NCBI GenBank assembly: GCA_012270965.1
Contig: JAAXHJ010000082.1
Location: 20,919-84,918, forward strand
DNA length: 64,000 bases
From: Candidatus Palauibacter poriticola
GTDB lineage: Bacteria > Gemmatimonadota > Gemmatimonadetes > Palauibacterales > Palauibacteraceae
Direction: 5' to 3'
How positions within the stretch are numbered: position 1 is the stretch's first letter; each line of letters starts with the position of its first letter. Position numbers and translations under genes: made by a program. Shown one piece after another: positions 2,746 to 51,241 of the stretch. Under the pieces are notes generated by a model. The model was not told the origin of the DNA and searched no databases. It saw only the letters and a program-made list of their open reading frames with translations.

Positions 2746-2773
2746 CGGGGCCCGGTCCTCGGCTGGATCCCGC

Positions 2774-4413: not shown

Positions 4414-4460
4414 ATCCCGAGAATCCCTCGTGTCCGTGTCCGGAAGTGGAGTCCGAACCG

Positions 4461-5876
4461 CTATCCGACCGACCCTTCCATCTCCAGTTCGATCAGCCGG
4501 TTCAGTTCGATCGCGTACTCGAGCGGCAACTCCTTGGCCACCGGCTCGATGAAGCCCCGCACGATCATCGCCATCGCCTCCGCCTCATCGAGACCACGGC
4601 TCATCAGATAGAAGAGCTGCTCGTCGCCGACCTTCGAGACCGTGGCCTCGTGCCCGATCGACGCCGTGTTCTCGTCGATCTCGATGTAGGGGTAGGTGTC
4701 CGTACGCGACCGCTCGTCGAGCAGCAGCGCGTCGCACTCGACGTTGGACTTCGCGCCCACCGCGCCGTCGTACACCTTGCACAGTCCGCGGTACGAGGAG
4801 CGCCCGAGCCCCTTCGAGATCGACTTCGAGGTGATCTGGGATGTCGTGTTCGGAGCGGCGTGGATCACCTTGCCGCCCGTGTCCTGGTGCTGCCCGTCCC
4901 CCGCGTACGCGATGGAGAGGATCTCGCCGTGCGCCCGCTCTCCGACCAGAAAGCACGACGGATACTTCATCGTGAGTTTCGAGCCCAGGTTCCCGTCGAG
5001 CCACTCCATCTTCGCCTCCTCGTGCACGAGTGCCCGCTGCGTGACGAGGTTGTACATGTTGTTCGACCAGTTCTGGATCGTCGTGTACCGGAAGCGCGCG
5101 CCCTTCTTGACCACGATCTCGATGACGCCGGAGTGGAACGAGTCCGTCGAGTAGACCGGCGCCGTACAACCCTCGATGTAGTGGGCTTCGGCCCCCTCTT
5201 CGCAGATGATGAGGGTGCGCTCGAACTGGCCCATGCGCTCCGCGTTGACCCGGAAGTAGGCCTGGAGGGGGATCTCCACCTTCACCCCCTTCGGGATGTG
5301 GACGAACGACCCTCCAGACCACACGGCCGAGTTGAGTGCCGCGAACTTGTTGTCGTGCGTGGGAACGACGGTCGAGAAATACTGCCGGAACAGCTGGGGG
5401 TGCTTCGCGAGCCCATCCTCGATCGACTCGAAGATCACACCCTGCTCCTCCCACTGCTCCTTTAGGGAGTGGTAGACCATCTCGGACTCGTACTGGGCCC
5501 CGACCCCGGCGAGCGCCTTACGCTCCGCCTCGGGGATCCCAAGCTTCTCGAACGTGTCCTTGATCTCCCGCGGGACATCGTCCCACGACCGTTCCATCTG
5601 GTCCTGCGGCTTCAGGTAGAAATAGATCTCGTCGAGCGTGTCCTCGAGTTTCGAGAGATCGCCGCCCCACTTCGGCATCGGCTTGGAGTAGTAGACCTCG
5701 AGCGCCTTCAGCCGGAAGTCGAGCATCCATTCCGGCTCTTCCTTGTGACGGGAGATCTGACGCACGATGTCGCTGGAGAGCCCGGGGACGGCCTTGAAGA
5801 CGGGCTTGTCCTCCGTAACGAACCCGTACTTGTACTCGTCGAGCCCGAGCCCGGTGATCGTCTCGTTCTGAGGCAT
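4461..5876 (-). CDS. sufB: Fe-S cluster assembly protein SufB
   Basis: 471 aa highly conserved SufB. Recognisable motifs include 'GLDEYKYGF', '[10 protein letters not shown]' and '[15 protein letters not shown]'. Confidence 0.95.
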
Positions 5877-5901
5877 GGTTCTTCCACCTTCCCTTACGGA
5901 G

Positions 5902-6675
5902 TCAGACCGTCGCCGCCGCCTGCTGGAGCCAGTCGTAACCCTCGGCTTCCAGCTTGTCGGCCAGCGAGGCGCCGCCGCTCTCCGCGATGCGGCCGGCCAC
6001 CATCACATGCACGGTGTCCGGCTCGATGTAGTTGAGGATCCGCTTGTAGTGCGTGATGAGCAGCACGCCGAGCGCCTCGTCGGCTTCGGACAGGCGGTTT
6101 ACGCCGCGGGCCACGATCTTGAGCGCGTCGATGTCGAGTCCGCTGTCGGTCTCGTCCAGAACCCCGAGCGCCGGCCGAAGCACGGCCATCTGCAGGATCT
6201 CGTTCCGCTTCTTCTCGCCGCCGGAGAAGCCGTCGTTCACATACCGGGCCGCGAAGCCCGGATCCATCTTCAACATCTCCATCTTCTCGGTGAGCGTGCG
6301 CTGGAACCCGAACACGTCCATTTCCTCGCCCTCGTCCAGCCGCGCGTTCACGGCGGTGCGCAGAAAATTGGCGATCGAGACGCCCGGGATCTCCGCCGGA
6401 TACTGGAAGGCGAGAAAGATCCCCGCGCGGCTCCGCTCATCGGGCTCCAGCTCGAGGACATCCTCCCCCTCGAACAGGATCTCGCCCGCCGTCACCTCGT
6501 ACGCGGGGTGGCCCGCGATGACCTTGGCGAGCGTGCTCTTGCCCGAGCCGTTGGGCCCCATCAGCGCGTGCACCTCGCCGCGCTCGAGGTCCAGATCGAC
6601 GCCGCGGAGGATCTCTCCGTCCTCGCCTCCGACCTTCGCCCGGAGTCCGCGTATCGACAGAAGCGGTTCTGACAT
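5902..6675 (-). CDS. sufC: Fe-S cluster assembly ATPase SufC
   Basis: The Walker A '[10 protein letters not shown]', ABC signature 'FSGGEKKR' and Walker B 'LDETDSGLD' are present. I use the ATG at 6675, which is preceded by an AAGAGGA RBS. The ORF track's longer start at 6735 is considered unlikely. Confidence 0.9.
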
Positions 6676-6756
6676 TCGTGTCCTCTTGTGTTGCAAAAGG
6701 CCGGTCACTCGGGGGCGCCGGCCTGCTGGAAGCATACCGAATCGAATCGGGATGAA

Positions 6757-6773
6757 CCGATAACGATTATCGG
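6757..6773. promoter_or_regulatory. Fur-box-like near-palindrome (CCGATAACGATTATCGG) in the suf promoter region
   Basis: This 17 bp 7-1-7 inverted repeat resembles the Fur consensus GATAATGATAATCATTATC. It lies about 85 bp upstream of the sufC start. A second inverted repeat, GTTGAGA-n5-TCTCAAC, lies at 6814-6832. Confidence 0.35.
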
Positions 6774-6894
6774 CGGGACAAAGTACGCCGGGCGCGACCC
6801 CATATCAAGCCTCGTTGAGACCCGTTCTCAACTGTGGCGACGCGGTCGGTCGGGTTCCTGCACGGGCCGCGGCGCGACCGTAGGTTTGGCGGCC

Positions 6895-7929
6895 ATGAGA
6901 GCGGCCTACTTCGAACGACACGGCGGGCCCGACGTCATCCGCGTCGGCGACCTGCGCGAGCCGTCGGCGGGTGCCGGCGAGGTGCTGATCCGCGTGCGCG
7001 CGGCGGGCCTCAATCACCTCGATCTCTGGACGCGGCGCGGCCTGCCGGGACTCACGCTGAAGATGCCGCACATCGGAGGATCGGATGTGGCGGGGGAGAT
7101 TGCGGCGACGGGGGATGGAGTGGAGGGCTGGTCTCCCGGCGACCGGGTGGCGGTAAACCCGGGACTCTGGTGCGCCCCCGCCGACTGCGAGTGGTGCGTC
7201 CGCGGCGAGCACCCCCTCTGCGCCTCCTACCGCATCCTCGGCGAGCACGTACCCGGCGGCTTCGCGGAACAGGTCGCGGTTCCGGCGCGCAATTTGGTCC
7301 GGCTCCCGGACGGCTTCCCGTTCGCGACCGCGGCCGTCGCGCCCCTCGTATACCAGACGGCGTGGCGCGGACTCCTCTCGCGGGGACGGCTGGCGGCGGG
7401 AGAGACGGTCCTCGTCACCGGGGCGTCGGGCGGCGTCTCCACCGCCGCGATCCAGATCGCGAAACACCGCGGGGCGCGCGTGTTCGCGGTCACGAGCGGC
7501 CCCGCGAACGTCCGGCGCGTGGAAGCGCTCGGAGCCGACCTCGTCATCGACCGTCTCGAGGAGGACTTCTCACGCCGCGTGTGGATGGAGACGGAGAAGC
7601 GCGGCGTCGACCTCGTCCTCGACAGCGTGGGCGCGGCGACGTGGGATGGCTGCGTTCGCGCGCTGGCGCGTGCGGGCAGGATGGTCGTGTACGGCGCGAC
7701 GACCGGTCCGCGGGGCACGCTCAACATCGCGCGTCTGTTCTGGAGCCAGACGTCGATCATGGGAACGACGATGGCGACGCGTGCCGAGTTCGAGGCCGTG
7801 ATGGGGCTCGTGCTGGACGGCGCCCTCACCCCGGTCGTCGATGACCTTTGGCCATTGGAGCGGGCGCGCGAGGCCCACGAGCGGCTGGAGGCGGGCGGGG
7901 TCTTCGGGAAGCTCGTCCTCGAGCCGTGA
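6895..7929 (+). CDS. Zinc-binding alcohol dehydrogenase / quinone oxidoreductase (MDR superfamily)
   Basis: The protein starts 'MRAAYFERHGGPDV', carries a GxGxxG Rossmann motif ('VTGASGGVSTAAIQIA') and MDR catalytic-domain motifs. It is divergent from the suf operon. Confidence 0.8.
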   Translation: MRAAYFERHGGPDVIRVGDLREPSAGAGEVLIRVRAAGLNHLDLWTRRGLPGLTLKMPHIGGSDVAGEIAATGDGVEGWSPGDRVAVNPGLWCAPADCEWCVRGEHPLCASYRILGEHVPGGFAEQVAVPARNLVRLPDGFPFATAAVAPLVYQTAWRGLLSRGRLAAGETVLVTGASGGVSTAAIQIAKHRGARVFAVTSGPANVRRVEALGADLVIDRLEEDFSRRVWMETEKRGVDLVLDSVGAATWDGCVRALARAGRMVVYGATTGPRGTLNIARLFWSQTSIMGTTMATRAEFEAVMGLVLDGALTPVVDDLWPLERAREAHERLEAGGVFGKLVLEP

Positions 7930-9698
7930 CTCCGGCAGCGGCTCCGGGGCGCGCCGAACGGTTCCGGAGCCTTGCGGAGACCGCCTTCGACATCCTCGTC
8001 ATCGGAGGCGGCATTTCCGGCGCGGCCGTCGCGCGCGACGCGGCCCGCCGCGGGTTTCGCACCGCTCTCGTTGAAGCGGCTGATTTCGCGCGGGGCACGA
8101 GCAGTCGTTCCTCCCGCCTCGTCCACGGCGGCCTGCGCTACCTGGAGCACTTCGAGTTCGACCTCGTGTTCGAGGCGAGTCAGGAACGGCGGACCCTGCT
8201 CCGCATCGCGACCCACCTCGTCCGGCCGCTGGAGTTCCACTTTCCCATCTTCCGTGAGGGTCGGATCGGCCGGCGCAAGCTGGACGCGGGGATGTGGCTC
8301 TACGACGCGCTCTCGCTGTTCCGGAACATCGAACGCCATCAGATGCTCGACCCGGAGGCCATGCTGGCCCGTGAACCGGGGCTGCGCGTTGAGGGGCTTC
8401 TCGGCGGCGCGCGCTATTTCGACGCCCAAGTCGACGATGCGCGGCTCGTCGTCACGACCATCGTGGCGGCCGTCGAGGCCGGCGCGACCGTGGTCAACCG
8501 GGCCGAAGTCGTCCGCATCGACACCTCGGACTGGCCGGGCCACCGGGCGCTGGTGAGAGATGCGGAGAGCGGACGGGAAGTAGAGGTCGACGCGCTCGCG
8601 ATCGTCAACGCCACCGGCGCGTGGGCCGAACAGACGCTCGACCGCGTCACCGCCGGCCCGCGGGCGCCGGGCGCGGACGCTGGCGCGGCCCCCGGCTCGG
8701 GCGCTGGCGCGGCCTCCGCCGTGCGCATCCGGCCCTCGCGGGGGACGCACATCCACGTGGCGCGCGAGCGGGTGGGGCACTCCGGCGCGCTGATCTTCGA
8801 GGCGCCCCAGGACGGCCGCGTGATGTTCATCCTCCCGTGGCGGGAGGACCTGACCCTGATCGGCACGACGGACGAGTTTTTCGACGGCCGCCCACACGAG
8901 GTCGCGGCCACCCCCGGCGACATCGCCTACCTGCTCGAGGCCACCCGTCGCCTGCTCCCCGCGTCGAAGCTGGGACCGGAGGATGTGATCAGCGCGTGGG
9001 CCGGCCTGCGGCCGCTCGTCGCGCCGCCCGCCGACGGCGCCGACGAGGGTGCCGTGTCGAGGGAGTTCGAGGTCCATCAGCATCCGCCGGGAATCTTCAC
9101 GCTGAGCGGAGGTAAGCTGACCTCTCACCGGCACATGGCCGAGGCGACGGTGGATCGCGTACAGGCGTTCCTCGCGCCGGCCGGCGTGAAGGCGCTTCGG
9201 AGGGTGGACACGGACAAGGTCCCGCTCCCCGGCGCGCGGTTCCGGGATCTGGAGGCGCTCCGCGGCCAAATCCGGGCGCGCGCCCGCGCCTTGGGCCTCG
9301 GGTGCGCCTCCGCGGGCCTCGTGCGCGCCTCCGCCGACCGCCTCACGCGCGCGTACGGGACGAGGGCGAACCGGGTGCTCGACTTGGTTGAGCGAGACCC
9401 GCGGCTCGGCGAGCGGGTCGTCGCGGAGAGGCCGCACCTTCTGGCCGAAGCGGTGTATTCGGTACGGAGCGAGATGGCCCTTCACGTCGAGGACATTCTC
9501 TTTCGGCGGATGCGGGTCGGCCTCGAAACGCGCTCCGGGACGCCGGAGGCCGCGCGCCGCGTCTCCGAAGTCGTGGCCCCGGAGCTGGACTGGACGGAGG
9601 AACGGCAGATGGAGGAAGTGAAACGGGCCTTGGCCTTCAGGGCGGTGGACGACGGCGCGATCCGCCAGTTGGCGGCCCGCGCGAAGGGGGTTCGTTGA
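7926..9698 (+). CDS. glpD: FAD-dependent glycerol-3-phosphate dehydrogenase/oxidase (GlpD/GlpA family)
   Basis: The 'DILVIGGGISGAAVARDAARRG' FAD-binding fold, 'RLVHGGLRYLE' and a C-terminal GlpD-type domain are present. The GTG start overlaps the alcohol dehydrogenase stop (GTGA). An alternative later start is possible. Confidence 0.8.
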   Translation: MTPAAAPGRAERFRSLAETAFDILVIGGGISGAAVARDAARRGFRTALVEAADFARGTSSRSSRLVHGGLRYLEHFEFDLVFEASQERRTLLRIATHLVRPLEFHFPIFREGRIGRRKLDAGMWLYDALSLFRNIERHQMLDPEAMLAREPGLRVEGLLGGARYFDAQVDDARLVVTTIVAAVEAGATVVNRAEVVRIDTSDWPGHRALVRDAESGREVEVDALAIVNATGAWAEQTLDRVTAGPRAPGADAGAAPGSGAGAASAVRIRPSRGTHIHVARERVGHSGALIFEAPQDGRVMFILPWREDLTLIGTTDEFFDGRPHEVAATPGDIAYLLEATRRLLPASKLGPEDVISAWAGLRPLVAPPADGADEGAVSREFEVHQHPPGIFTLSGGKLTSHRHMAEATVDRVQAFLAPAGVKALRRVDTDKVPLPGARFRDLEALRGQIRARARALGLGCASAGLVRASADRLTRAYGTRANRVLDLVERDPRLGERVVAERPHLLAEAVYSVRSEMALHVEDILFRRMRVGLETRSGTPEAARRVSEVVAPELDWTEERQMEEVKRALAFRAVDDGAIRQLAARAKGVR

Positions 9699-13165: not shown

Positions 13166-13477
13166 TTACCGGTGCTCTTCGGGCTCGTCCCATGTCTGAG
13201 CCCAGAATTCATCCTCCTCGGCCCTCGCCAACTCGAGATCCACCGGTTCGACATCCTCCGCGTCCACGCGGCCCACCGTCTCGATGCGCTGCACGATCTC
13301 GTCCGTCACACCGGTGCGGGTCTGGCGACGCAGATGGCTCCGGCGTCTCCAGCCGGCCACCGCGACCAGCACCGCAAGCGCCACGAAAATGTAACCGGTC
13401 ACCGCATTCCACTGCTCTCGACTGCCGGCGGACTGTGGCGGGACCCCGCGTGGCGTCTCCCGGAATCCGCAGGCCAC
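13166..13477 (-). CDS. Small hypothetical single-TM protein with acidic C-terminus
   Basis: 103 aa ORF that fills the gap between two minus-strand genes. A TM helix 'YIFVALAVLVAVAGW' is present. There is no homology support. Confidence 0.3.
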   Translation of the reverse strand: MACGFRETPRGVPPQSAGSREQWNAVTGYIFVALAVLVAVAGWRRRSHLRRQTRTGVTDEIVQRIETVGRVDAEDVEPVDLELARAEEDEFWAQTWDEPEEHR

Positions 13478-13531
13478 GGAAAGACGCCGCGCGGGCGAGT
13501 AGCCCGTGGCGAAAGCCCCGCGACGGGGTTG

Positions 13532-16258
13532 CTAGAGTCCCAGCCAGTGCTCGAACTTCACGAGGAAGATATTGGTGGAGGGAATCCGCGCGAGGTCCGT
13601 CAGATCCTCGCCGAGGCGAAACGATCCGTCGTTGCGGAACGATTGCTGGTCGCGGCTCCAGACGAGGAACACGGTCGATCCGGGCCGGTACTGCCAGCGC
13701 AGAACCAGGTTGGAGCGGAACGACTTCACGTTGAAGTCGGGGTCCCCGAAGCCGAAGTCCGCCGTCCCGTCCCGGTCGGCGTCGACTTGGTAGAGTCCGA
13801 AGCCGTTCGCCTCCACGCGCCGGATCTCGTCCTCGCCGTACGTCCGGAAGCGGTCGGCGAAATCGGCGGCCCGCGGATCATCGACTTCCATGAAACGGTC
13901 GTAGCTCCCCGCGCTCACGAAGGGCTGGGCGTAGAACTGAAGGGAGAGATCCGGGCTGAACGTGTAGTTGAGGCGCGTCGTGATCGAGACGGTCTGCTGG
14001 CGCAGACGCGCGAACACGTAGTGCGTCCCGTCGGAGGCGCCGGGCCGCGAGACGAACTGCCACGCCCGATCGTTCCACTGCAGGCTCGGGCCGAGGTTGA
14101 GCTGGAGGCGGCTCGACGGCTGGAGCATCAGGTTCGGCGACACGCCCCAGCGCCGGGTCGGGGTGGCGTACTCTCCTCCCGCGTTGAAGACGGCTCCGAG
14201 GCGCACCGGCTTGCGGGTGTCCGTGAACACGCCGCCCCAGGTGCTCCACCCGCTCGGTTGGTAGAGGGTGGGCCCTCCGCGCAGCGCCGTGGTGGCGAGT
14301 CCCGACCACTCCTGGTTGAACCCGGCGAAGCCGCGCCAGAAGTTCTTGAGCTGGAAATTCCCATTCACGTTGCCGCCCGTGAACTGCCGCTCGCCGCCGA
14401 ACGTCCAGCCGGACCATGTCGCCGCGTTCACTCCCCAGCTCCGAAACGGCCCCTGCGGACGGAACTGGTCGTAGTTCACCCAGACCGCCCCGACCCGGTA
14501 ATCCGCATTCTGCTGGAATCCGAGGTCGTTCGCTTCGAAGCCGGGCGAACGGTTCTCGCCGAACAGTCCGTAGCGCCAGTTTCCGCCTCCCACCCTCGAG
14601 AAACTGATCGTCGACGTGCTGCCGGAGAGACGCGTGCGGGTGGGGTCCAGCCCGTGCTTGGAGTCCGGGCTCTGGAAGTAGTGGACGGAGGAACGCTGGA
14701 TGCGCTCGATCGCCTCCGCGCTCCCGCTCACCGTGCTCCCGATCACATGACCGTTGATCTCGTAGTTGCCGTTCCCGAACCGATGCCGGAAGTCGATCCC
14801 TCCCGTGTACGCTTGGTCCGCGAGAAAGGCGAGCGTCCCCGCGCCGTCCAGGCGCCGGTTCGTGGCGGTGGCGATGACGCCGACGGCGCTCTCTCCGTCG
14901 CGGAAGTCCTTGATGACCCGCGCCACGGCGTAGTTGGTCATCGGCTCCACGAGCTGCTCGCCGGATGTGCCCCCCGGCGAAATGAAGCGCGCGTTCTCGC
15001 TTGAAGTGAGGGCATCGAGGAAGCCGATCGACCAGCCGTCCGCCGTTTTCCCGGACAGTTTCGCCGCTCCGAGAATGCTCGTCGCCTCCGGCACATCGCG
15101 GTAGTCCGCCGGACTCGTCACGGATCCTTGGGGCGTCCGCCCGATCCGGCGGCTGTAGAAGAGCGACTCGTTGTTGTCATCGCCCCCGCCGAAGTCAAAA
15201 CCGAAGATGTCCGATCCCTCCTGGAAGAACGGCCGCTTCTCGGGAAAGAACGTCTCGAACGCGCTGAGGTTCACGACCGAGGGATCCGCCTCGACCTGCC
15301 CGAAGTCGGGGTTGACGGTGACGTCGAGCGTTAGATTCTCCGTGATTCCGTACTTCAGATCGCCCCCCACGGTCTGGCGCAGGGCCGTGGCCGCGTAGAA
15401 CGGATCATCCGTGGTTCCCGGCGCCCGCGTCGCCGAAGAGAGGACGTAGGGCCGGACCTCCAGACTGCGGCGCGGCCGCAGGCCCCGAAGGCCGCTCAGC
15501 GTGCCGAAGGCGGAAACGACCCGCGAGCGGTCCTCCGGCAGGGGCGACCACGCGCTCGCCTCCTCCAAGCGGGCGATCTCGCGCAGGAAGTTGATGCCCC
15601 ACGTGCTTCCGGAACCTTCGTCCGATGAGCCGGCGAAGCGAAGTTGCGAGAGGGGGATCCGAAGTTCGGCCGTCCAGCCCGTTTCATCCGTGCGCGTCGC
15701 GCTCTCCCACACGGCGTCCCAATCGTCGTCCTCCTGCGTGTCGGAGAACATCAGCGCGTCGCTCTGAACCCCCGCCACGCTGACGGAGAAACGGAACGCC
15801 GTGCGGCGATCGAAGTAGCTGTCGACCGCGACGTGGAAGGCGTCCGTCGTGACCTGCTCATCGCGGCGCGCGAGCCGGCGGATGATCCCGTCGGGATCGC
15901 GGTCGTGCATCCGCGCGCCGATGTAGATGGCGTCGTCCGCGTAGAGGACCCGGACCTCGGTGCGCTCGCTCGCCGGCTCGCCCGGGTCGGGCTGGACCTG
16001 AACGAAGTCGGTGGCAACCGAAGCTCCGTTCCACGCGGGTTCGTCCAGCCGCCCGTCGATCTGCGGCGCCTCCGCGGCCCGGACGGCTTGGAGCGCCGGA
16101 GCCGCGGCGGCCCGCCCGTGTGTCTCGCCGCCGGTCGCGGAGTCCTGCGCCGCAAGCGGTGCGGCCAGGCCCATCAAGAGCGCGAATGCCGCCAACCGGC
16201 GCAGCGGGGCGGCGGAATCTATCGAAAACCAGGAGAATCCCAACGTGACCTTCCTCAT
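13532..16258 (-). CDS. CBM9-like / DUF5916 domain outer-membrane protein
   Basis: 908 aa protein with a signal peptide. An N-terminal CBM9-like region ('IDGRLDEPAWNGA...') is followed by a long beta-rich C-terminal region. This architecture is common in Bacteroidota and Gemmatimonadota. Confidence 0.75.
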   Translation of the reverse strand: MRKVTLGFSWFSIDSAAPLRRLAAFALLMGLAAPLAAQDSATGGETHGRAAAAPALQAVRAAEAPQIDGRLDEPAWNGASVATDFVQVQPDPGEPASERTEVRVLYADDAIYIGARMHDRDPDGIIRRLARRDEQVTTDAFHVAVDSYFDRRTAFRFSVSVAGVQSDALMFSDTQEDDDWDAVWESATRTDETGWTAELRIPLSQLRFAGSSDEGSGSTWGINFLREIARLEEASAWSPLPEDRSRVVSAFGTLSGLRGLRPRRSLEVRPYVLSSATRAPGTTDDPFYAATALRQTVGGDLKYGITENLTLDVTVNPDFGQVEADPSVVNLSAFETFFPEKRPFFQEGSDIFGFDFGGGDDNNESLFYSRRIGRTPQGSVTSPADYRDVPEATSILGAAKLSGKTADGWSIGFLDALTSSENARFISPGGTSGEQLVEPMTNYAVARVIKDFRDGESAVGVIATATNRRLDGAGTLAFLADQAYTGGIDFRHRFGNGNYEINGHVIGSTVSGSAEAIERIQRSSVHYFQSPDSKHGLDPTRTRLSGSTSTISFSRVGGGNWRYGLFGENRSPGFEANDLGFQQNADYRVGAVWVNYDQFRPQGPFRSWGVNAATWSGWTFGGERQFTGGNVNGNFQLKNFWRGFAGFNQEWSGLATTALRGGPTLYQPSGWSTWGGVFTDTRKPVRLGAVFNAGGEYATPTRRWGVSPNLMLQPSSRLQLNLGPSLQWNDRAWQFVSRPGASDGTHYVFARLRQQTVSITTRLNYTFSPDLSLQFYAQPFVSAGSYDRFMEVDDPRAADFADRFRTYGEDEIRRVEANGFGLYQVDADRDGTADFGFGDPDFNVKSFRSNLVLRWQYRPGSTVFLVWSRDQQSFRNDGSFRLGEDLTDLARIPSTNIFLVKFEHWLGL

Positions 16259-44857: not shown

Positions 44858-45109
44858 ATGAGCGGCGAGATGATCGCGATCATTGCAGCCGCCATTGCGC
44901 TGGCGGGTGTGATGGTGCCGGGCATGCGCGGGATGCGGCGCGACATGCAGCAACTGGAGGTCCGGCTCACCGAGCGGATGACGGCGTTGGAGACGAAGCT
45001 CACTGAGCGGATGGCGCGGCTGGAGACGACGCTCACCGAGAGCGTGGCTCGCCTCGAGGGATTGTTCGAAGGGTCCATGCGCACACGAGAGCCGCGCAAG
45101 ACGCGGTGA
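44858..45109 (+). CDS. Small single-TM protein with four 11-residue (hendecad) repeats
   Basis: A GGAAGAGGG RBS precedes the TM helix 'MIAIIAAAIALAGVMV'. Four repeats follow: LEVRLTERMTA, LETKLTERMAR, LETTLTESVAR and LEGLFEGSMRT. The stop overlaps the GTG start of the next gene. Confidence 0.45.
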   Translation: MSGEMIAIIAAAIALAGVMVPGMRGMRRDMQQLEVRLTERMTALETKLTERMARLETTLTESVARLEGLFEGSMRTREPRKTR

Positions 45110-45984
45110 CACCGCCTGCCCTCTCCGTCATCCTCAGCACGTACAACGCGCCGGACGAACTGGAACGGGCGCTCTGGGGTTACTCGGCGCAGACACGCGA
45201 AGGGTTCGAGGTGGTGGTCGCGGATGACGGATCCGGCCCCGAGACGCGCGACCGAATCAAGCGCCTGAGGGCATCCACCGGTCTCGCGATCTCCCATCTC
45301 TGGCAGGAGGACGACGGGTTCAAAAAGTGTCGAATCCTGAACCGGGCGATCGCCGAGGCCCGCGGAGATTATCTCATCCTCAGCGACGGCGACTGCATCC
45401 CGCGGGACGACTTCGTGGATGCGCACGCTAGGCTCGCCAGACCGGGGTTCTTCGTTTCGGGCGGCAGGATTCGCCTCTCGAGCGCGGCCGGGGCGCGAAT
45501 CGAGAGAGCGGATGTTCTCGACGGTTCGCTGTTCGAGTCGCCGTGGCTCCATGAGAAACAAGCGCTGACGCGGAGGCGGGACCGGAGCAAACTCAGCCGC
45601 TCGCCTCGTCGCGCCACGTGGTTTGATCGCTTGACGACGACGCGGGCGACGTGGAACGGGCACAACGCCTCGGCTTGGAAGACCGACCTCCTGCGCGTGA
45701 ACGGCTTCGACGAGCGCATGACGTACCCGGTCGAGGACCGCGAACTGGGCGAGCGTCTCCGCAACGCCGGGATTCGCGCCCGCCAAGCTCGGCATCGGGC
45801 GGTCTGCGCGCACGTCGAGCACGACCGGCCTTGGTTGGATCCCGAAGCGCGGGCGAGAAACGAACGGTTGCGCGCCGAGACGCGCGGCGTGCCCCGGCCG
45901 CTCCGCATCTTCCAAGGGTTCGTGCGAGGGCGCGAATGGACGGAGCACGGGATTCGGAAGGGCCCGAGGCCGGTTCAGTCGTAG
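45106..45984 (+). CDS. Glycosyltransferase family 2 with GalT-like (Glyco_transf_7C-type) C-terminal region
   Basis: 'VILSTYNAPDELERAL', 'VVVADDGSGPETR' and 'DGDCIPRDDFV' (DxD motif) are present. The C-terminal 'LRVNGFDERMTYPVEDRELGERL' is also present. Confidence 0.8.
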   Translation: MTPPALSVILSTYNAPDELERALWGYSAQTREGFEVVVADDGSGPETRDRIKRLRASTGLAISHLWQEDDGFKKCRILNRAIAEARGDYLILSDGDCIPRDDFVDAHARLARPGFFVSGGRIRLSSAAGARIERADVLDGSLFESPWLHEKQALTRRRDRSKLSRSPRRATWFDRLTTTRATWNGHNASAWKTDLLRVNGFDERMTYPVEDRELGERLRNAGIRARQARHRAVCAHVEHDRPWLDPEARARNERLRAETRGVPRPLRIFQGFVRGREWTEHGIRKGPRPVQS

Positions 45985-46799
45985 CCGTCGATTCCCCGTT
46001 CGGCGCGGACCGCGTCGGAGCGAAGACGGCGCTCCAGGCGCTTGCGGCTCGCCGGGTCGGGCGACCGCGCCTCGTGCCAGAGGTGCAGAACCGGGACGGC
46101 GTAGCGCCCCTCCTTGCGTCGCACGCCGCTGCGGATGAGGCGGACGACGAGGTCGTTGTCCTCGAAGCCCCAGCCTTGGAAGCCCTCGTCGAACCCGTTC
46201 ACCGCCACGAAGTCCGAACGCCACAGGGCGAGATTGCACCCCTTGACGCCATGCCACCGCCGGGGTGACATCTGGCGCAGGGGTCCCAGCGGCAGGCGCA
46301 GCAGAGGCGTGAAGCGGTCCACGCGTCCCCGGAGCCACTCGCCGAGCCAGCGGACGGCGCCCCAGCGCTCGATTGCGGGCGGGACCTGCCCGATCGCGAA
46401 CCGCGAGAGTCCGGGGGCGAGCCGCACCCGGCTCCCGTGGACGAAATGCCCCGGCTCGGCGAACCGTGCGTGTCTCGCCACATAGTCCGGCCGCACGAGA
46501 CAATCGCCGTCGAGGAAGATGAGGTACGGCTGGTCGGTCGCGGCGGCGGCCCTGTTCCGGATCGCGGCCAGTCGATACCCCCGGTCCTCTTGCCGGACGT
46601 GCCGTAGGTCGAGGCCGGATTCCTCCGCGTGCCACAGGACGAGTTCGCGCGTCTCCGGGCCGGAACCGTCATCGGCCACGACGATCTCGAAGCGGCGGTA
46701 CGTCTGTTCGGCGAGACTCCTCAGGACCGCGTGGAGGGCGTCGGGCCGGTCATGGGTCGAGACGATGACCGCGATTCCGGGGCCGTCGGACGCCTTCAC
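45975..46799 (-). CDS. Glycosyltransferase family 2 paralog (GalT-like C-terminus)
   Basis: 'VIVSTHDRPDALHAVLRSL', 'IVVADDGSGPETR', 'DGDCLVRPDYV' and 'VAVNGFDEGFQGWGFEDNDLVVRL' are present. The gene is convergent with its paralog at 45106. Confidence 0.8.
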   Translation of the reverse strand: MKASDGPGIAVIVSTHDRPDALHAVLRSLAEQTYRRFEIVVADDGSGPETRELVLWHAEESGLDLRHVRQEDRGYRLAAIRNRAAAATDQPYLIFLDGDCLVRPDYVARHARFAEPGHFVHGSRVRLAPGLSRFAIGQVPPAIERWGAVRWLGEWLRGRVDRFTPLLRLPLGPLRQMSPRRWHGVKGCNLALWRSDFVAVNGFDEGFQGWGFEDNDLVVRLIRSGVRRKEGRYAVPVLHLWHEARSPDPASRKRLERRLRSDAVRAERGIDGYD

Positions 46800-47821
46800 A
46801 CCAAGTATCCCGCGCGCTCCATGACGGGGCCGAACGCGGCTTCGATCCGGGCCGCGTCGGCCGGATCAAGCTCATCCCTCCACCCCTCGGCCTCTCCCCG
46901 GCGAACGAACCGCCCCTCGCCACGCGCGCGCCCCGCGTAGGCCTCCGCGCCGTAGCGCCCCTCCAAGTCTCGCATGGCCTCGAACGACCCGCGCGCCACC
47001 GCCCGCGAGAGCCTCGCGGATGTTTCCGCAGCAACGTCTCCCGCGGCGGCCTGTCTCGCGGCAGCCTGTCCCACCGCAAGGTGTCCCACGGCAAGGTCGT
47101 CCACGGCAAGGTCTTCCGCCGGAACACCGCCCGCGGGAACCGCTCCGATGAACTCCGCCACGCGGCGCAACGCCGCCCCGCGGTCGGCGACAATATCCTC
47201 GTAGCGCACCACGCAGACCCTCTCCCCGCCCTCCGCGCGCCGGAGCGCCGCCGCGACCTGCCGGTCCCATCGCATCAGGTGCCGGTGCCAGGCGTCGAAC
47301 GGAGCGCCGCCGGACAGGTATCCATCCACAAACCTCGAGAGCGTCATGTCACGGTCATCGAACATCGTCGCGAACATGTGCCGGAAGGAGACCAGGACCG
47401 CCCGCGGATCACGCACGAGATAAACGGTTCCGGGATAGCGTCGCGGATGGCGGGGATACTCGTTCCGGAACACCCTCGGGTCCGGGAGGTGGCCGTAGGT
47501 GGTGATCGCGTGGTCGCGGCCGTGAACGAACGGCACGTAGTCGCCGACGTTGTAGAGATTCACGTCCCCGCGGCGATCATCCGACAGCAACACGGCCAGC
47601 ATGTATGCGAGCCAGGTGTTCCCCGACTTGGGATGGCCGACAAGGAAGACATCGGTGGGCCGCAGGGCCCGGCGAAACTCGGGCTCCCGCAGCCGGTTCC
47701 GAAGCCCGTCGCGCAGCCGGTAATACCCGGCTTGGCGCTTGCCGCGACCGAACCATCGCTTGAAGGCGGGGACCGGGCGCCGCCGGATCCGGGGCGGGTC
47801 GAGCCTCGCAGGCCGGTTCAC
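46796..47821 (-). CDS. Sulfotransferase (cytosolic SULT-like, PF00685-type)
   Basis: The 5'-PSB motif 'HPKSGNTW' and 3'-PB motif 'RDPRAVLVSFRHMF' match the PAPS-binding signatures of the Sulfotransfer_1 family. The GTG start at 47821 overlaps the upstream gene's stop (GTGA). The longer ORF-track start would overlap the upstream gene. Confidence 0.7.
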   Translation of the reverse strand: MNRPARLDPPRIRRRPVPAFKRWFGRGKRQAGYYRLRDGLRNRLREPEFRRALRPTDVFLVGHPKSGNTWLAYMLAVLLSDDRRGDVNLYNVGDYVPFVHGRDHAITTYGHLPDPRVFRNEYPRHPRRYPGTVYLVRDPRAVLVSFRHMFATMFDDRDMTLSRFVDGYLSGGAPFDAWHRHLMRWDRQVAAALRRAEGGERVCVVRYEDIVADRGAALRRVAEFIGAVPAGGVPAEDLAVDDLAVGHLAVGQAAARQAAAGDVAAETSARLSRAVARGSFEAMRDLEGRYGAEAYAGRARGEGRFVRRGEAEGWRDELDPADAARIEAAFGPVMERAGYLV

Positions 47822-49488
47822 CGGGACCACGGAACCTGCCGTCCGATGAGTTCCGAGACCTCGTCCGCGTCGAACGCGTACTCCCGTTCGAGGTGATCGC
47901 GTACCCAGTCCGGCATGGGGACGGGATCCGAAGCATTCACCGGCCTCTCCAACGACTCCGCGTCCGGCGTAACGATGTCCGCCTCGAGGAAGCCCAGAAG
48001 ATCGCGTATCAGGTGCCCGGGACCCTCCCGGATCTCGTCCAAAAAACCAAAGAAGAACTGCTCCTGCGGAAAGTGCCCGAACCACGCCCGCAGACACGTC
48101 GCGTAGTCGCTGCGCCGGCGGACCGGATCGCTGTCGAGGAACGAGACGAGTTCGTCGCGGCTCACGGACTCCAACGGTTTGCCCCGCCACCGCGGAAACC
48201 CGTACCGTGCCTGAGACCACGCGCGCTTGATCGGATCGCGCATCATGAAGATGAGCCTCGCGTCGGGCATCCACTCCGCGACGCGCCGGATGACCGCCGG
48301 TTCGAGAATCGCATATGCGGGCGTAATCTCGCCCCGAATCCGGTCGCCCCCCCCGATGCGGCCGCCCCCCCCGATGCGGCCGCCCCCCCGCACGCGGACG
48401 AAGCGGGCGAGATAGCGGAGGCGATCGATGCGATCCCGCACGGATCCGCTCGCGGCGAGTGGCCCAAGCTTGCGGTCGAAGAAGTGGATTTCCTTCCGGC
48501 CCATCCGAATCTGCGGGTGGTGGGAGAGCTGCGCCGCCACCCAACTCGTGCCCGCTCGTGTGGCGCCGATCCCGAGAAAACGAGGCATCTGGCGCGACAG
48601 AGCGCGTTTGCGCACCGAACGCCCGTCGGGTGGCCGAGGCGGATCGATCGGGTCATCGAGAAAGGTCGAGGGCAGGCGGCGAACCGCGACATCCTCCTGC
48701 TCGCCGCGGAGGCGCTGGAACGTGACCCATTCGCGTCGCTTGCGGGGCGAGGGAAAGTCCATCGTCGACCAGTGATCGAACTCCTCCTCGTCAAGGAACT
48801 TCAACTCGTAGAAGCAGACGGGCGCGAAGTGATGCGTCCGAAGCCAGCGGGGGCGGATGAGCTGTTCCCAATGTTCCCGCTTGTGGAACCTAACGCGATA
48901 GCCGCAGGGGGCGATCCGCACCTCCCGGTTCAACTCTCCGCGCCGCGCCAGAAGTGACCCGTCGGCCGTCCGGTATACCGTCTGGCCGGCGAGCGACCAG
49001 GCCCCGGGCCATCCCCGTCCGAGTCCGGCGAGCAAAGCGTCGAAGGCATGCCGCTGCTCGCCCGCGAGCACCATGTCCGCGTCCCACTTGCAGGCGTACC
49101 GCCGGGTGCAGCGCGACAGGGCCCAGTTCGTGAAGTAGACCAGGGAGTGCAGCGAGTCGGCCGGGGTCTCGTCGTGCTCGGGTCCGAACCGTCCCACCCG
49201 GAAGGGATATGAATGAAGGCGGATGTTTGCGCCCCCGGAGGCGGACCCGCGCACGCGCCGCACGATGTCCGCGGTATCGTCACGACTCCCGTTGTCGATC
49301 ACGTGGATCTCTTCGAACACGGGGAGGATCGAGCGCAGGCAGTGCTCGATCTTCGTCCCCTCGTCCCTCGCCCGCACGAAGGCGCTCGTCCCCGGCGCAC
49401 GATTCCGGCGCGGAAGGGAGAACGCGTACTCCTCGTTCCCCTCCCGGTTTCGAAACTCCATCCGGTGGCGGTACGGTAGGCGCATCAT
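47818..49488 (-). CDS. Bifunctional glycosyltransferase (GT2-like) - sulfotransferase fusion protein
   Basis: The N-terminal roughly 230 aa carry 'VIDNGSRDDTADIVRR', a GT2-like motif. The Gly-rich linker is 'RGGGRIGGGGRIGGGDRIRG'. The C-terminal roughly 250 aa carry 'RFLGIGATRAGTSWVAAQL', the PAPS-binding P-loop of Sulfotransfer_3-type enzymes. Confidence 0.7.
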   Translation of the reverse strand: MMRLPYRHRMEFRNREGNEEYAFSLPRRNRAPGTSAFVRARDEGTKIEHCLRSILPVFEEIHVIDNGSRDDTADIVRRVRGSASGGANIRLHSYPFRVGRFGPEHDETPADSLHSLVYFTNWALSRCTRRYACKWDADMVLAGEQRHAFDALLAGLGRGWPGAWSLAGQTVYRTADGSLLARRGELNREVRIAPCGYRVRFHKREHWEQLIRPRWLRTHHFAPVCFYELKFLDEEEFDHWSTMDFPSPRKRREWVTFQRLRGEQEDVAVRRLPSTFLDDPIDPPRPPDGRSVRKRALSRQMPRFLGIGATRAGTSWVAAQLSHHPQIRMGRKEIHFFDRKLGPLAASGSVRDRIDRLRYLARFVRVRGGGRIGGGGRIGGGDRIRGEITPAYAILEPAVIRRVAEWMPDARLIFMMRDPIKRAWSQARYGFPRWRGKPLESVSRDELVSFLDSDPVRRRSDYATCLRAWFGHFPQEQFFFGFLDEIREGPGHLIRDLLGFLEADIVTPDAESLERPVNASDPVPMPDWVRDHLEREYAFDADEVSELIGRQVPWSR

Positions 49489-49622
49489 GTCGGCAAGCTA
49501 CGGCCGCCCCTTCCTCGGGTCAGCCCGCGATCGGATGCTTCCCTTTCGGCTCGCGTCGGCTTAGCCTTCGTGCATGGACGTTACGAATCCCGCTGAGCGG
49601 ACCAACGGGAAGAGGGGAACCG

Positions 49623-50663
49623 TTGCAGCTTTCTGCCATTAGTCTATTCGCCGGTGCCGGCGGCTTGGACCTGGGGGCCCATCAAGCCGGCTTCAGGACG
49701 ATCTGCGCCGTGGAATTGGATCGCCATTGCGCGTCAACGCTGCGGAAGAACCTTCGCCGCAGCGCGATCTGGCAGGTAGACGTTCGTGCACTAGACCCTC
49801 GCCTTGCGGTCGACGCCCTCGGCGTTAAGCCCGGAACGCTAGTGCTGCTACATGGCGGGCCACCCCGCCAACCCTTCAGTCAGATTGGCAAGCAGCTCGG
49901 CGTTGACGACCCACGGGGGCGTCTGATCTTTGAAATGGTTCGCTTTGCAGAGGCCCTACGGCCCGCCGCCGTGTTGATCGAGCAGGTACCGCGGTTCCTG
50001 CAGGCGAACGGCTCTCGGGCGCGGAACATGCAGGATGTGCTACGGGAGCAATTCTCGGCCATCGGTTATGATTATCACGCCGGGATTCTGGACGCCACGC
50101 TGTACGGCGTTCCGCAGCGCCGCAAGCGTGCGATCATTGTCTGCGTACCCGCGGGAACCAGGTTTCACTTTAGCCAGCCCATCTTTCGCGCGACGCCAAC
50201 CGTCGGCGACGCCATCGGCGATCTCCCGCCCGCCGTGCCCAAGGGCGAACCCCCCTTGGCTCCGAATCATGTGGTCGTTACGCCCCTCCGTGATCGAGAG
50301 CGGATTTCGTACGTTCCCGAGGGCGGGTGGCTCTCGAAGGTTCTCGATGCGCCTCCCGACATACGGCGTCGCTTGACCAAGAAGGACACGACCAAGTTCC
50401 GCCGCCTTGACCGAAATCTCCCATCCCTCACCCTTCGGTGCGGCGAGGCCTTGTATCACCCCACCGAGGACCGCTACCTGACTCCACGCGAAGCGGCGCG
50501 GATTCAGGGCCTCCCGGACAGCCACATCTTCGTCGGTCCTCTCCGGCGCCGAACTGGCACCGTGCCCGACCTGGATCAGCACCGGCAGGTCGCCAACGCC
50601 GTACCGCCTCCCTTAGCCAAGAGTGCGGTGGCCGACATCAGGAAGGCTCTGTGCCTCGGGTAG
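49623..50663 (+). CDS. DNA (cytosine-5)-methyltransferase homolog with catalytic Cys replaced by Arg
   Basis: The TTG start follows a GAGGGG RBS. Motif I is 'LFAGAGGLDLG' and motif VIII is 'QRRKR'; motifs IX/X are present ('GNAVPPPLA'). Motif IV reads 'GGPPRQPFS' (codon cgc) instead of 'GGPPCQGFS'. Motif VI reads 'EQV' rather than 'ENV'. Confidence 0.75.
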   Translation: MQLSAISLFAGAGGLDLGAHQAGFRTICAVELDRHCASTLRKNLRRSAIWQVDVRALDPRLAVDALGVKPGTLVLLHGGPPRQPFSQIGKQLGVDDPRGRLIFEMVRFAEALRPAAVLIEQVPRFLQANGSRARNMQDVLREQFSAIGYDYHAGILDATLYGVPQRRKRAIIVCVPAGTRFHFSQPIFRATPTVGDAIGDLPPAVPKGEPPLAPNHVVVTPLRDRERISYVPEGGWLSKVLDAPPDIRRRLTKKDTTKFRRLDRNLPSLTLRCGEALYHPTEDRYLTPREAARIQGLPDSHIFVGPLRRRTGTVPDLDQHRQVANAVPPPLAKSAVADIRKALCLG

Positions 50664-50677
50664 CGGAACTGTTTGGC

Positions 50678-51241
50678 ATGCGACTCGGCGAAGCCGGCTC
50701 GGTGCGGGATCACGTGTGGACGGCACCGTGTCCCCATCGTCGGGAACAGTGCAATGGCGGCGGCAACCGGAATATGGCAAGGTGGCCAGCCATCGAGCAG
50801 CCCTTGGCTCCCCTGTTCGATGCGTCCGTCGGCATCAACTCGAACGGTTTCATCCCATGCGGTGTCTGTTCGGTTCGCGTGGGTGGGGAGGTGTGGGCGA
50901 GAATGGCGTCGCAGCTGATCGTGAAATCCGAGATGGCAAACGCGTGGGGAGGCCGCACGATTTGGGTAATCCAGCATCAATTGGCGGATTACATTCGGAA
51001 AAGCACGGGCTTGAGGCTGGACGCATTGCGGAAGGCGAGTTGGGTTTCAGATGAGGTGAACGTAGTATCCGCCAGCTTGGACGAGCCGAACGACATCAGA
51101 CTATACGCGGGGCGTATTGGCGAAGTGACGGAGGAGGCCGTGTGGTGGGAGTTGGTGAGGTCACCGGGTCTTCCAAGCGTGGAGGTCCTGGAGCGGAGAC
51201 TCTCGGAGCGGGTGCGCAAGACGAGGCTGAGAGTGCGATGA
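50678..51241 (+). CDS. Hypothetical Cys-rich protein downstream of the MTase homolog
   Basis: 188 aa protein with 'CPHRREQC' and 'PCGVC', giving four Cys as a possible zinc site. No confident family assignment was made. The stop overlaps the rhodanese gene start (ATGATGA). Confidence 0.45.
   Translation: MRLGEAGSVRDHVWTAPCPHRREQCNGGGNRNMARWPAIEQPLAPLFDASVGINSNGFIPCGVCSVRVGGEVWARMASQLIVKSEMANAWGGRTIWVIQHQLADYIRKSTGLRLDALRKASWVSDEVNVVSASLDEPNDIRLYAGRIGEVTEEAVWWELVRSPGLPSVEVLERRLSERVRKTRLRVR

Follow-up and report, generated by a model that had tools for sequence, protein, structure and literature searches.

The window analysed here, a 64,000-nucleotide stretch (64 kb) of a contig from Candidatus Palauibacter poriticola, a marine member of the Gemmatimonadota, carries five adjacent genes that the original prediction took for a set building and sulfating a glycan, and our check of its open reading frames found all five where it had placed them. 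Four of these genes, between 45106 and 49488, encode real, conserved enzymes, which together account for three glycosyl-transfer and two sulfate-transfer activities, with one of each housed in a single protein. They are arranged as two convergent units. The plus strand carries GT2a, sometimes preceded by the small gene g1, while the minus-strand unit runs from the fusion gene through ORF4 to GT2b, with successive genes joined by stop/start codon overlaps. On an identical contig, public gene calling assigns the first four products lengths of 83, 292, 274 and 344 aa; for ORF4, the fourth, 344 aa corresponds to an alternative start at 47830, and the start used here gives 341 aa. A hydropathy scan found no transmembrane segment in any of the four enzymes, and four soluble enzymes are consistent with PAPS-dependent chemistry in the cytoplasm.

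The first gene, g1 (44858..45109, plus strand), encodes a protein of 83 aa, in which a transmembrane helix at the N-terminus (hydropathy peak 2.33 at aa 5-23, KD19) is followed by three 11-residue LETxLTERMxx repeats. TRF detects a 33-nt repeat of 2.3 copies in the gene, and the homologues of g1 carry 3-7 repeats each. The Pfam scan returned just a weak Apolipoprotein-like coiled-coil match. The stop codon of g1 overlaps the start of GT2a (GTGA). Of the 17 syntenic genomes with a locus extending that far, tblastn finds g1 in only 8. In two loci (L003 and L004) the intergenic distances read at this position are 45-80 nt, too short for g1. Since roughly half of the syntenic genomes lack it, we regard g1 as accessory and not as part of the cluster core. 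The predicted five-gene set holds for the four enzymes, which are co-inherited, but not for g1.

Two of these enzymes are paralogous GT2 glycosyltransferases, as had been proposed, with PF00535 matches in both and 38% mutual identity. GT2a (45106..45984, plus strand; PF00535 at 5e-17) is a soluble inverting GT-A (GT2) enzyme of 292 aa, 76-88% identical among Palauibacter genomes and 57-59% identical in the more distant loci L019 and L029. GT2b (45975..46799, minus strand; 274 aa; PF00535 at 1e-21, PF02709, Glyco_transf_7C, at 5e-14) is the final gene of the minus-strand operon, with positions 46796-46799 shared by its start and the stop of ORF4. ORF4 itself (46796..47821, minus strand) is a SULT-type PAPS-dependent sulfotransferase, and the profile search places it as predicted (PF00685, Sulfotransfer_1, 4e-24). 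It matches cytosolic SULT structures at 1e-12 to 1e-10 and carries the PSB loop HPKSGNTW and the 3'-PB motif RDPRAVLVS; in the alignment to these structures, the position of the SULT catalytic His is occupied by Glu. A variable insert in ORF4 is made of 15-nt tandem repeats (47042-47117, TRF), and its GTG start overlaps the TGA stop of the fusion gene.

The fusion gene (47818..49488, minus strand; 556 aa) is the most distinctive member of the cluster. Residues 1-262 (48703..49488) form a divergent GT-A glycosyltransferase domain, which we call N-dom, and residues 301-556 plus the stop codon (47818..48588) form a PAPS-dependent sulfotransferase domain of the heparan sulfate 3-O-sulfotransferase (HS 3-OST)/Sulfotransfer_3 type. 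The latter is placed by profile search in PF13469 (Sulfotransfer_3, 1.6e-9), and against the PDB the fusion profile matches 3rnl at 1.7e-15 and HS 3-OST-3A, -1 and -5 at 1e-12 to 3e-10. The homologue alignment shows conserved motifs at G308..R311-x-G313-T314..W316, K332-E333-I-H-F-F-D338 and R417-D418-P419..W424-S425. With both catalytic folds confirmed, family, motif and fold evidence agree that a GT2-like domain and a second, different sulfotransferase reside in one protein, and the fusion is a genuine GT-A/sulfotransferase joint protein. Its homologues in Candidatus Palauibacter, more than 40 proteins at 70-81% identity, are likewise single ORFs, so neither a frameshift artefact nor a concealed stop between two genes accounts for it.

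The boundary between the two domains does not lie where it had been drawn. The glycine-rich stretch first taken for the linker is an in-frame tandem repeat of 18 nt encoding GGRIGG (48332..48389, minus strand; aa 367-386; 3.2 copies with 92% matches in TRF). We reject it as a linker, as it lies inside the sulfotransferase domain, about 55 residues in and past the PAPS 5'-phosphosulfate-binding loop (aa 307-316); most fusion homologues lack this expansion. The true interdomain linker spans aa ~263-300 (48589..48702, minus strand), is hypervariable in length and sequence (alignment columns ~300-385) and is rich in proline and arginine in the homologue alignment. Its position corresponds to a former stop/start junction, still visible as a GTGA overlap in L029, one of the more distant Gemmatimonadota loci.

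Conservation of the neighbourhood supports the unity of the four enzymes and reveals the origin of the fusion. In all, 18 Palauibacter genomes keep the four genes in synteny, with one of the loci stopping inside the fusion gene; in 17 of them, at 68-88% identity, the set is flanked by an M14 peptidase gene and a rhodanese gene. Three Gemmatimonadota loci at greater distance (L019, L029 and L033) keep the gene set as well. N-dom is absent altogether from L019, which keeps the remaining cluster, while in L029 N-dom (290 aa) and the sulfotransferase (257 aa) are separate genes that overlap by GTGA, with gene order unchanged. Such overlapping neighbours in a distant relative identify the fusion as a lineage-specific join of adjacent genes, and the comparison shows that it was born in the Palauibacter lineage by loss of the stop codon between them. 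The join is recent, the two genes still being separate in relatives, and the module, a chromosomal cluster, has been inherited vertically.

N-dom belongs to an uncharacterised GT-A subfamily that is repeatedly linked to sulfotransferases. Besides the window protein, P0048 and P0068 combine it with Sulfotransfer_3 domains, P0053 (46% identity to both parts) and P0391 with an ORF4-like SULT, and P0071, P0102 and P0078 with Sulfotransfer_2. These fusions span three Pfam sulfotransferase families, with N- and C-terminal orientations both seen, and in every informative N-dom locus a sulfotransferase lies within 10 kb. Four of these N-dom loci are classical polysaccharide loci: L020 carries Wzy_C, L023 a Poly_export gene together with a weak PEP-CTERM domain match, L024 a Polysacc_synt (Wzx-type) flippase and L026 Wzm/Wzt ABC transporter genes. 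Similarly, Wzy_C and another GT2 gene adjoin the GT2b orthologue of Nitrospina watsonii (51% identical).

The enzymes are supported as a co-inherited set for sulfated-glycan synthesis. It seems to us somewhat probable that they work together as a module in the cytoplasm, where a short stretch of a cell-envelope glycan, be it LPS O-antigen or core or a capsular or exopolysaccharide, would be assembled and O-sulfated. In this scenario, the three soluble inverting GT-A enzymes (GT2a, GT2b and N-dom) would transfer sugars from nucleotide-sugar donors to an acceptor on the membrane's inner face, probably an oligosaccharide linked to undecaprenyl or to lipid A-core, and the two PAPS-dependent sulfotransferases would then sulfate sugar hydroxyls ahead of export. 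The fusion would physically couple sugar addition to sulfation, its sulfotransferase likely targeting the residue added by N-dom or a neighbouring one. The enzyme identities, the intact cofactor and catalytic motifs and the confirmed folds all speak for this proposal, as do the stop/start overlaps tying fusion, ORF4 and GT2b, and g1 and GT2a, the recurrent N-dom/sulfotransferase linkage and the polysaccharide genes around distant homologues. The 21-kb syntenic loci were compared with the genes of the window only, so the envelope-polysaccharide link rests on these distant contexts. Against it, the Pfam scan found no flippase, polymerase or PAPS-synthesis gene among the ~40 ORFs of the window, as the original prediction had noted, nor any priming phosphoglycosyltransferase, export, nucleotide-sugar or cysDNC/PAPS gene in the 64 kb; priming, flipping or export and PAPS synthesis would need genes elsewhere in the genome. 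The assignment of ORF4 to the cytosolic SULT family, whose characterised members are mostly small-molecule enzymes, and the nearest solved structures of N-dom, the peptide S-glycosyltransferases SunS and ThuS, also count against it.

Could the product be a soluble or lipidic small molecule, such as a sulfated glycoside, a glycolipid or a tailored natural product? Enzymes acting on a cytoplasmic aglycone or lipid would need no flippase or polymerase, and the missing assembly and export genes, the solubility of all four enzymes and the SULT-like ORF4 would all fit. Moreover, both GT2 enzymes distantly match MftF, the mycofactocin small-molecule glycosyltransferase, an acyltransferase-ACP-thioesterase gene lies immediately upstream of the fusion on the same strand in one locus (L008), and the characterised bacterial carbohydrate sulfotransferases named in a review (NodH, Stf0 and KpsS) act on glycolipids (PMC11625862). 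However, that gene is found neither in the window nor in most syntenic genomes, the cluster holds no conserved aglycone-forming enzyme, and homologues of N-dom, the ORF4-like SULT and GT2b occur with Wzx-type flippase, Wzm/Wzt, Poly_export and Wzy_C genes, which leaves us doubtful of a small-molecule product.

One could also speculate that the fusion is functionally meaningless, a neutral by-product of stop-codon loss in which one domain may be inactive. The ancestral GTGA overlap meant that a single change was enough, several lineages have fused N-dom to whatever sulfotransferase is downstream, and L019 does without N-dom. We consider this unlikely, as the cofactor and catalytic motifs of both domains are invariant in the 70-81%-identical orthologues and in family members of 31-44% identity, the fused state is kept in more than 40 homologous proteins (18 from genomes of different GTDB species), and fusion to three sulfotransferase families in both orientations points to a functional link over mere adjacency. 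Finally, a protein target, either the Thr-rich cytoplasmic repeats of co-transcribed g1 or another envelope or secreted protein, is very improbable: the best short sequence matches of the fusion are indeed SunS and GmaR (the latter annotated by name only, and described in the literature as a flagellin O-GlcNAc transferase), translational coupling links g1 to GT2a, and the recurring Thr and Ser residues of g1 would face the cytoplasm by the positive-inside rule. However, about half of the genomes with all four enzymes lack g1, the structural likeness to SunS covers only a generic GT-A core (~180 residues, 19% identity), homologue contexts indicate polysaccharides, and among the characterised carbohydrate sulfotransferases encountered in our PDB searches or in the review (PMC11625862), none has a bacterial glycoprotein glycan as its substrate.

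Returning to the sulfated envelope glycan, this kind of system is known. Glycosyltransferases are likewise clustered with PAPS-dependent sulfotransferases in Synechocystis PCC 6803, in the xss cluster for synechan (PMC8205485), and in the marine Vibrio sp. KMM 8419 and Cobetia marina, in loci for sulfated capsule and O-antigen (PMC11641403, PMC11766843); as in our module, the sulfate is presumed to be added from the cytoplasmic side, ahead of export. Those loci also include genes for export or polymerisation (Wzx/Wzy or ABC/Kps), with cysDNC for PAPS synthesis as a further part of the Vibrio locus; the four-enzyme module has none of these within its 64 kb. None of the three papers mentions a GT-sulfotransferase fusion, and our literature search found no published description of one, so that this part of the system appears undescribed, as had been suspected. 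To call the whole an undescribed modification system was too strong, since the cluster is vertically inherited, the join is recent and homologues of its parts occur in ordinary polysaccharide loci that also hold Wzx, Wzm/Wzt, Wza-type or Wzy_C genes. Nor are bacterial sulfotransferases of the fusion's type rare, contrary to the earlier view of bacterial carbohydrate sulfotransferases as uncommon: 13,478 representative proteins match at E <= 1e-3, most of the top ones aligning to the sulfotransferase half only.

The individual domains also have known relatives. Among solved structures, GT2a (6e-12) and GT2b (2.4e-19, to K4CP residues 93-317) are closest to E. coli K4 chondroitin polymerase (K4CP/KfoC; PDB 2z86, 2z87), specifically to its first GT-A domain, with which they share a GT2-type N-terminal half and a C-terminal motif resembling beta-4-GalT. 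K4CP is a two-domain polymerase, whereas GT2a and GT2b are single-domain proteins of ~280 aa, and the likeness, at family level only, does not fix donor or linkage. For the fusion sulfotransferase domain, 3rnl from Alicyclobacillus acidocaldarius is the top match in both sequence and structure (Foldseek TMt 0.70, 24% identity), yet it is a standalone, uncharacterised protein whose entry, titled merely 'Sulfotransferase', gives no functional clue. The fold is also that of the animal HS 3-O-sulfotransferases and the NDST sulfotransferase domain (PDB 1t8u, 1zrh, 3uan, 3bd9, 1nst; TMt 0.63-0.72), with the PSB loop, the E-x-H-F-F-D catalytic base, E-x-T-P-x-Y and the 3'-PB RDP...S in common, although identity is only ~20% and the PSB loop reads R-x-G in place of K-G-G, the R-x-G form being typical of Sulfotransfer_3 and NodH (PMC11625862). 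Unlike these enzymes, the fusion domain is cytoplasmic and joined to a glycosyltransferase, and the likeness gives no evidence for a glucosaminoglycan substrate. A separate Polysacc_deac_1 gene adjoins the N-dom gene in L020, L032 and L033 and is absent from the window. NDST, the bifunctional heparan sulfate N-deacetylase/N-sulfotransferase, whose structure 8cd0 is among the fold matches, provides a precedent for the architecture, as it unites in one polypeptide a preparatory glycan step with a PAPS-dependent HS-type sulfotransferase domain; the partner is a deacetylase in NDST and a GT-A glycosyltransferase in the fusion.

The five genes of the locus all lie where they had been predicted, arranged as two units that converge. 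The plus-strand unit has g1, which encodes a small membrane protein (44858-45109), followed by the glycosyltransferase gene GT2a (45106-45984) across a GTGA stop/start overlap. On the minus strand, the gene for the 556-residue glycosyltransferase-sulfotransferase fusion (49488-47818) comes first, followed by ORF4, encoding a SULT-type sulfotransferase (47821-46796), and lastly by GT2b (46799-45975), a paralogue of GT2a, with stop/start overlaps at both junctions; GT2a and GT2b share 10 nt at their 3' ends. The codon-position G+C of the five ORFs has the pattern typical of real genes, and the public gene calls on the identical contig give the first four 83, 292, 274 and 344 residues, ORF4 having 341 from the start used in this analysis. 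No transmembrane segment is present in any of the four enzymes. A scan of the locus found nothing promoter-like and a single terminator-like site, which is below shuffle expectation. The window has a G+C content of ~69%, and homologues place its source in Candidatus Palauibacter (Gemmatimonadota, order Palauibacterales), a genus known from metagenome-assembled genomes alone, some of which originate from sponges.

The C-terminal half of the fusion belongs to the PAPS-sulfotransferase superfamily, as had been proposed: it matches Sulfotransfer_3 (1.6e-9), and motifs and fold agree. A profile of 20 homologues of the fusion matched the bacterial sulfotransferase 3rnl (1.7e-15) and the heparan sulfate (HS) 3-O-sulfotransferases (3-OSTs) 1, 3A and 5 (1e-12 to 3e-10), with the PAPS 5'-phosphosulfate-binding (PSB) loop and the motifs KEIHFFD, EITPAY and RDP...WS all aligned. 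The PSB loop, GIGATRAGTSW, aligns with those of 3rnl and HS 3-OST-3A, and in the 20 homologues G308, G313 and W316 never vary, while conservation is at least 90% for R311 and T314. In the 3'-phosphate-binding motif, aligned with RDPVTRAIS of HS 3-OST-3A, the same homologues keep R417, P419 and W424 invariant and D418 and S425 at least 90% conserved. E333 in KEIHFFD, aligned with AEPHFFD of 3-OST-3A, is conserved in at least 90% and would act as the catalytic base, as the glutamate does in the HS 3-OSTs. The full-length model, for which only 20 close homologues were aligned, was poor (pLDDT 58.7), and the C-terminal half alone was used; this model, of moderate confidence (pLDDT ~66-88 over residues 384-556), was matched by Foldseek with probability 1.0 to 3rnl (TMt 0.70) and to HS 3-OSTs (0.63-0.72). 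Among annotated plasmids, the search for NodH/LpsS relatives of this domain gave generic 'sulfotransferase' matches at 25-29% identity and no named enzyme.

The Gly-rich stretch that had been taken for the linker between the two domains sits within the sulfotransferase domain, beyond the PSB loop (residues 307-316). It is an in-frame 18-nt tandem repeat (48332-48389, residues 367-386) whose expansion is missing from most homologues; these repeats enlarge a surface loop, and its length differs between species. The true interdomain linker is a hypervariable segment at residues ~263-300. The domain before it (hereafter N-dom) falls under the gathering score of PF00535, reaching 20-21 bits where 23.3 are required and covering residues 37-81 alone; members of its family reach 3.4e-11 for PF00535, and 11 of 25 also match CgtA (PF06306). 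The 25 diverse homologues that we aligned are only 31-44% identical, and in them N66, S68 and D70 of the nucleotide-binding motif VIDNGSRDDT are invariant, as are W135 and D136 of the metal-binding DxD motif KWDADM, of which D138 is at least 90% conserved. Re-predicted with these homologues, N-dom has a GT-A fold (pLDDT 92.9, pTM 0.90); it represents a divergent GT-A subfamily.

One gene does encode both domains: over 40 homologues, including 18 drawn from the genomes of different species, have the fusion as one uninterrupted ORF, which rules out a frameshift or hidden stop. This ORF measures 542-614 residues; identity is 70-81% for the more than 40 proteins and 58-59% for three additional ones. 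The four enzyme genes keep the same order, between genes for an M14-type peptidase and a rhodanese, in 17 Palauibacter species genomes, and an 18th Palauibacter locus stops inside the fusion gene. Since this order is conserved in these genomes, the cluster is vertically inherited; a horizontally acquired island is ruled out, as flanking synteny is kept and the GC of 0.66-0.70 agrees with that of the remaining window.

More distant Gemmatimonadota loci display the ancestral and derived states of the fusion. In L029 (65% G+C), flanks and gene order are as in the window, and N-dom (290 residues, 43% identical) and the sulfotransferase (257 residues, 47% identical) are separate genes with a GTGA overlap. 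In L033 an N-dom gene (59% identical) immediately precedes an unfused SULT-like gene, and L019 has the sulfotransferase alone, with no N-dom. Many N-dom orthologues stand alone, as proteins of 283-284 residues with 52-61% identity, and the annotation of several names Gemmatimonadales or Gemmatimonadota; fused forms begin at ~63% identity. Thus, the fusion came about recently, within one lineage, when neighbouring genes that overlapped were joined.

In an exhaustive search, residues 8-281 of the fusion define a distinct family, whose named sources span phyla, including Gemmatimonadota and Gammaproteobacteria. The majority of members either stand alone, at 280-330 residues, or lie C-terminal to a canonical GT2 domain, and members are also joined to sulfotransferases from three Pfam families: to Sulfotransfer_3 in the window protein, P0048 and P0068; to an ORF4-like Sulfotransfer_1 in P0053 (46% identical to N-dom and 46.5% to ORF4), P0374 and P0391; and to Sulfotransfer_2, in either domain order, in P0071, P0102 and P0078, the last a protein of 1294 residues whose cluster contains a protein labelled as from Halioglobus. 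Wherever the flanking DNA sufficed (about nine loci), the N-dom locus has at least one sulfotransferase nearby. Four N-dom loci are recognisable as polysaccharide loci: L023, from the Longimicrobiaceae MAG contig DASSTO010000035.1, has a Poly_export gene, a weak PEP-CTERM domain match and, next to its fusion gene, four further Sulfotransfer_3 genes; a second has a Polysacc_synt (Wzx-type) flippase; a third has Wzm/Wzt ABC transporter genes directly before the N-dom gene, together with an ORF4-like SULT; and a fourth has a Wzy_C gene. L023, which is of the exopolysaccharide type, is unusually rich in sulfotransferases, also carrying Sulfotransfer_4, Sulfotransfer_2, an N-dom:Sulfotransfer_2 fusion and a second N-dom gene.

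The second sulfotransferase, ORF4, was likewise assigned correctly to a PAPS-sulfotransferase family: it matches Sulfotransfer_1 (PF00685) at 4e-24, with 85.8 bits against a cut-off of 22, as well as structures of cytosolic SULTs (~1e-12), and its PSB loop HPKSGNTW and 3'-phosphate-binding motif RDPRAVLVS are intact and align to the SULT motifs. The catalytic histidine of the SULT motif SH(L/I)P is not found in ORF4, where a glutamate is aligned instead (FRNEYP vs FSSHIP of 7v1o). This glutamate is common to the ORF4 orthologues in L019 and L008 (a related locus with insertions in the cluster) and to the SULT part of P0053, and an extra SULT paralogue in L019 keeps the histidine. Because glutamate is the catalytic base of HS-type sulfotransferases, activity is plausible for ORF4, which its motifs mark as an atypical SULT. 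Its gene also carries in-frame tandem repeats of a 15-nt unit (47042-47117), which expand a surface loop of a length that varies among species.

GT2a and GT2b, 38% identical to each other, both match Glycos_transf_2 (5e-17 and 1e-21, respectively), and GT2b also has the galactosyltransferase C-terminal motif PF02709 (5e-14). The closest solved relative of both is the first GT-A domain of the E. coli K4 chondroitin polymerase (K4CP; 6e-12 and 2.4e-19), and in Nitrospina watsonii a GT2b orthologue adjoins a Wzy_C gene. The likeness of the locus to K4CP and to the 3-OSTs is at the family level only, which does not qualify it as a heparan sulfate or chondroitin biosynthesis locus, and the window ORFs scanned include no two-domain polymerase, UDP-glucose dehydrogenase or epimerase.

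The original prediction had counted g1 among five cluster genes. Its product is membrane-anchored, repeats the 11-residue unit LETxLTERMxx 3-7 times and gave no family match beyond a weak apolipoprotein-like coiled coil; positive charges that follow the transmembrane helix point to a cytoplasmic location of the repeats. Of the syntenic genomes, 17 have a locus that extends to the position of g1, and the gene was detected in 8 of these; L003 and L004 have 45-80 nt alone there. Given this variable presence, g1 is accessory and is ruled out as a core component. Presence and repeat number both vary (44858-45109 in the window; L001, L002, L006, L009, L010, L017 and L018 among related loci).

Between the fusion and rhodanese genes (49600-51241) lie a C-5 cytosine DNA methylase gene (PF00145, 3e-52) and an ORF of ~193 residues (50660-51241), the latter without matches in Pfam or PDB. 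Neither had a tblastn match in 19 related loci, in most of which fusion and rhodanese genes are less than ~250 nt apart; the insertion is thus confined to the window genome, and is probably a restriction-modification or orphan methylase cassette. In L008 (insertions at 7373-9472 and 13463-14869), a gene for an acyltransferase-ACP-thioesterase tridomain protein has been inserted immediately upstream of the fusion gene, in the same orientation, and one for a secreted 6-bladed beta-propeller between GT2b and GT2a; L011 and L012 have similar-sized gaps at both positions. Elsewhere, the window holds a SUF iron-sulfur cluster assembly operon (1378-6804; a SufS-like aminotransferase, two SufB/D and a SufC-like ABC ATPase) and housekeeping or envelope genes (a TonB-dependent receptor, FG-GAP/ASPIC proteins, amidohydrolases and a multicopper oxidase). 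None of these genes has to do with exporting glycans or activating sulfate.

The best-supported reading is that the cluster works in the cytoplasm as a module tailoring a sulfated glycan of the envelope, this class of acceptor being suggested by the contexts of distant homologues. Three inverting GT-A enzymes would add sugars to a membrane-associated acceptor, and two PAPS-dependent enzymes would then, in the presumed order, sulfate the added sugars; the fusion would couple one sugar addition to one sulfation, perhaps with channelling between its domains. As first noted, flippase, polymerase and PAPS-synthesis genes are absent from the ~40 window ORFs scanned, and these ORFs do not make up a complete Wzx/Wzy or ABC-transporter polysaccharide locus, since genes for priming, flipping or transport, polymerisation or ligation, and export are lacking. 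Assembly and export genes were seen solely in the loci of distant homologues. Because the window is without assembly, export and PAPS-synthesis genes, we keep a small molecule or glycolipid as an unlikely alternative product. Protein glycosylation is a weaker reading, as g1 is dispensable.

Beyond a tailoring module for an envelope glycan, it is tempting to speculate that N-dom is a GT-A subfamily devoted to sulfated glycans, with a sulfotransferase as obligate partner, and that in Palauibacter it builds a glycosaminoglycan-like sulfated surface glycan that could imitate the sulfated extracellular matrix of an animal host or interact with it; taken as a whole, we hold this proposal to be quite improbable. 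An obligate partnership would explain the independent fusions to three sulfotransferase families. Palauibacter has sponge-associated members, and the host matrix is rich in sulfated glycans. If it is true that Palauibacter displays a sulfated surface glycan, this would bear on the recognition and tolerance of symbionts by their hosts.

In metagenomes, bacterial sulfotransferases of this type are not as uncommon as had been stated: 13,478 representative proteins match (E <= 1e-3), most of the best matches covering the sulfotransferase half alone. To our knowledge, a substrate is known for few of the carbohydrate sulfotransferases of bacteria. Enzymes making defined sulfated glycans are sought for animal-free heparin- or chondroitin-like materials, and a natural polypeptide joining sugar addition and sulfation could serve such production. 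Moreover, a GT-A subfamily marking sulfated-glycan loci across phyla would offer a genomic handle for finding producers, and with it a compact enzyme set. The scope of these ideas is bounded: chemistry of this sort is already known, the fusion arose recently in evolution, and the predictions come from sequence and models.

In the literature searched we found no mention of the fusion or of the subfamily, in keeping with the original prediction, and nothing relevant on sulfotransferases in sponge symbionts or Palauibacter; database labels of the fusion's homologues read 'glycosyltransferase' or 'sulfotransferase', and nothing more. In three related loci the N-dom gene has a Polysacc_deac_1 gene near it: L020 (5131-6141), L032 (2076-3083) and L033 (9003-9971), directly adjoining and divergent in the latter two. 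While the window's cluster has no deacetylase, this arrangement recalls the deacetylase plus sulfotransferase logic of animal NDST. Sulfated polysaccharide loci that bear sulfotransferases are already known, as for synechan (PMC8205485), and the capsule loci of marine Vibrio and Cobetia likewise carry them (PMC11641403, PMC11766843). The domains of the fusion are themselves distant members of known superfamilies; it is their joining in one protein, and the sulfotransferase-linked GT-A subfamily to which N-dom belongs, that seem to be undescribed.
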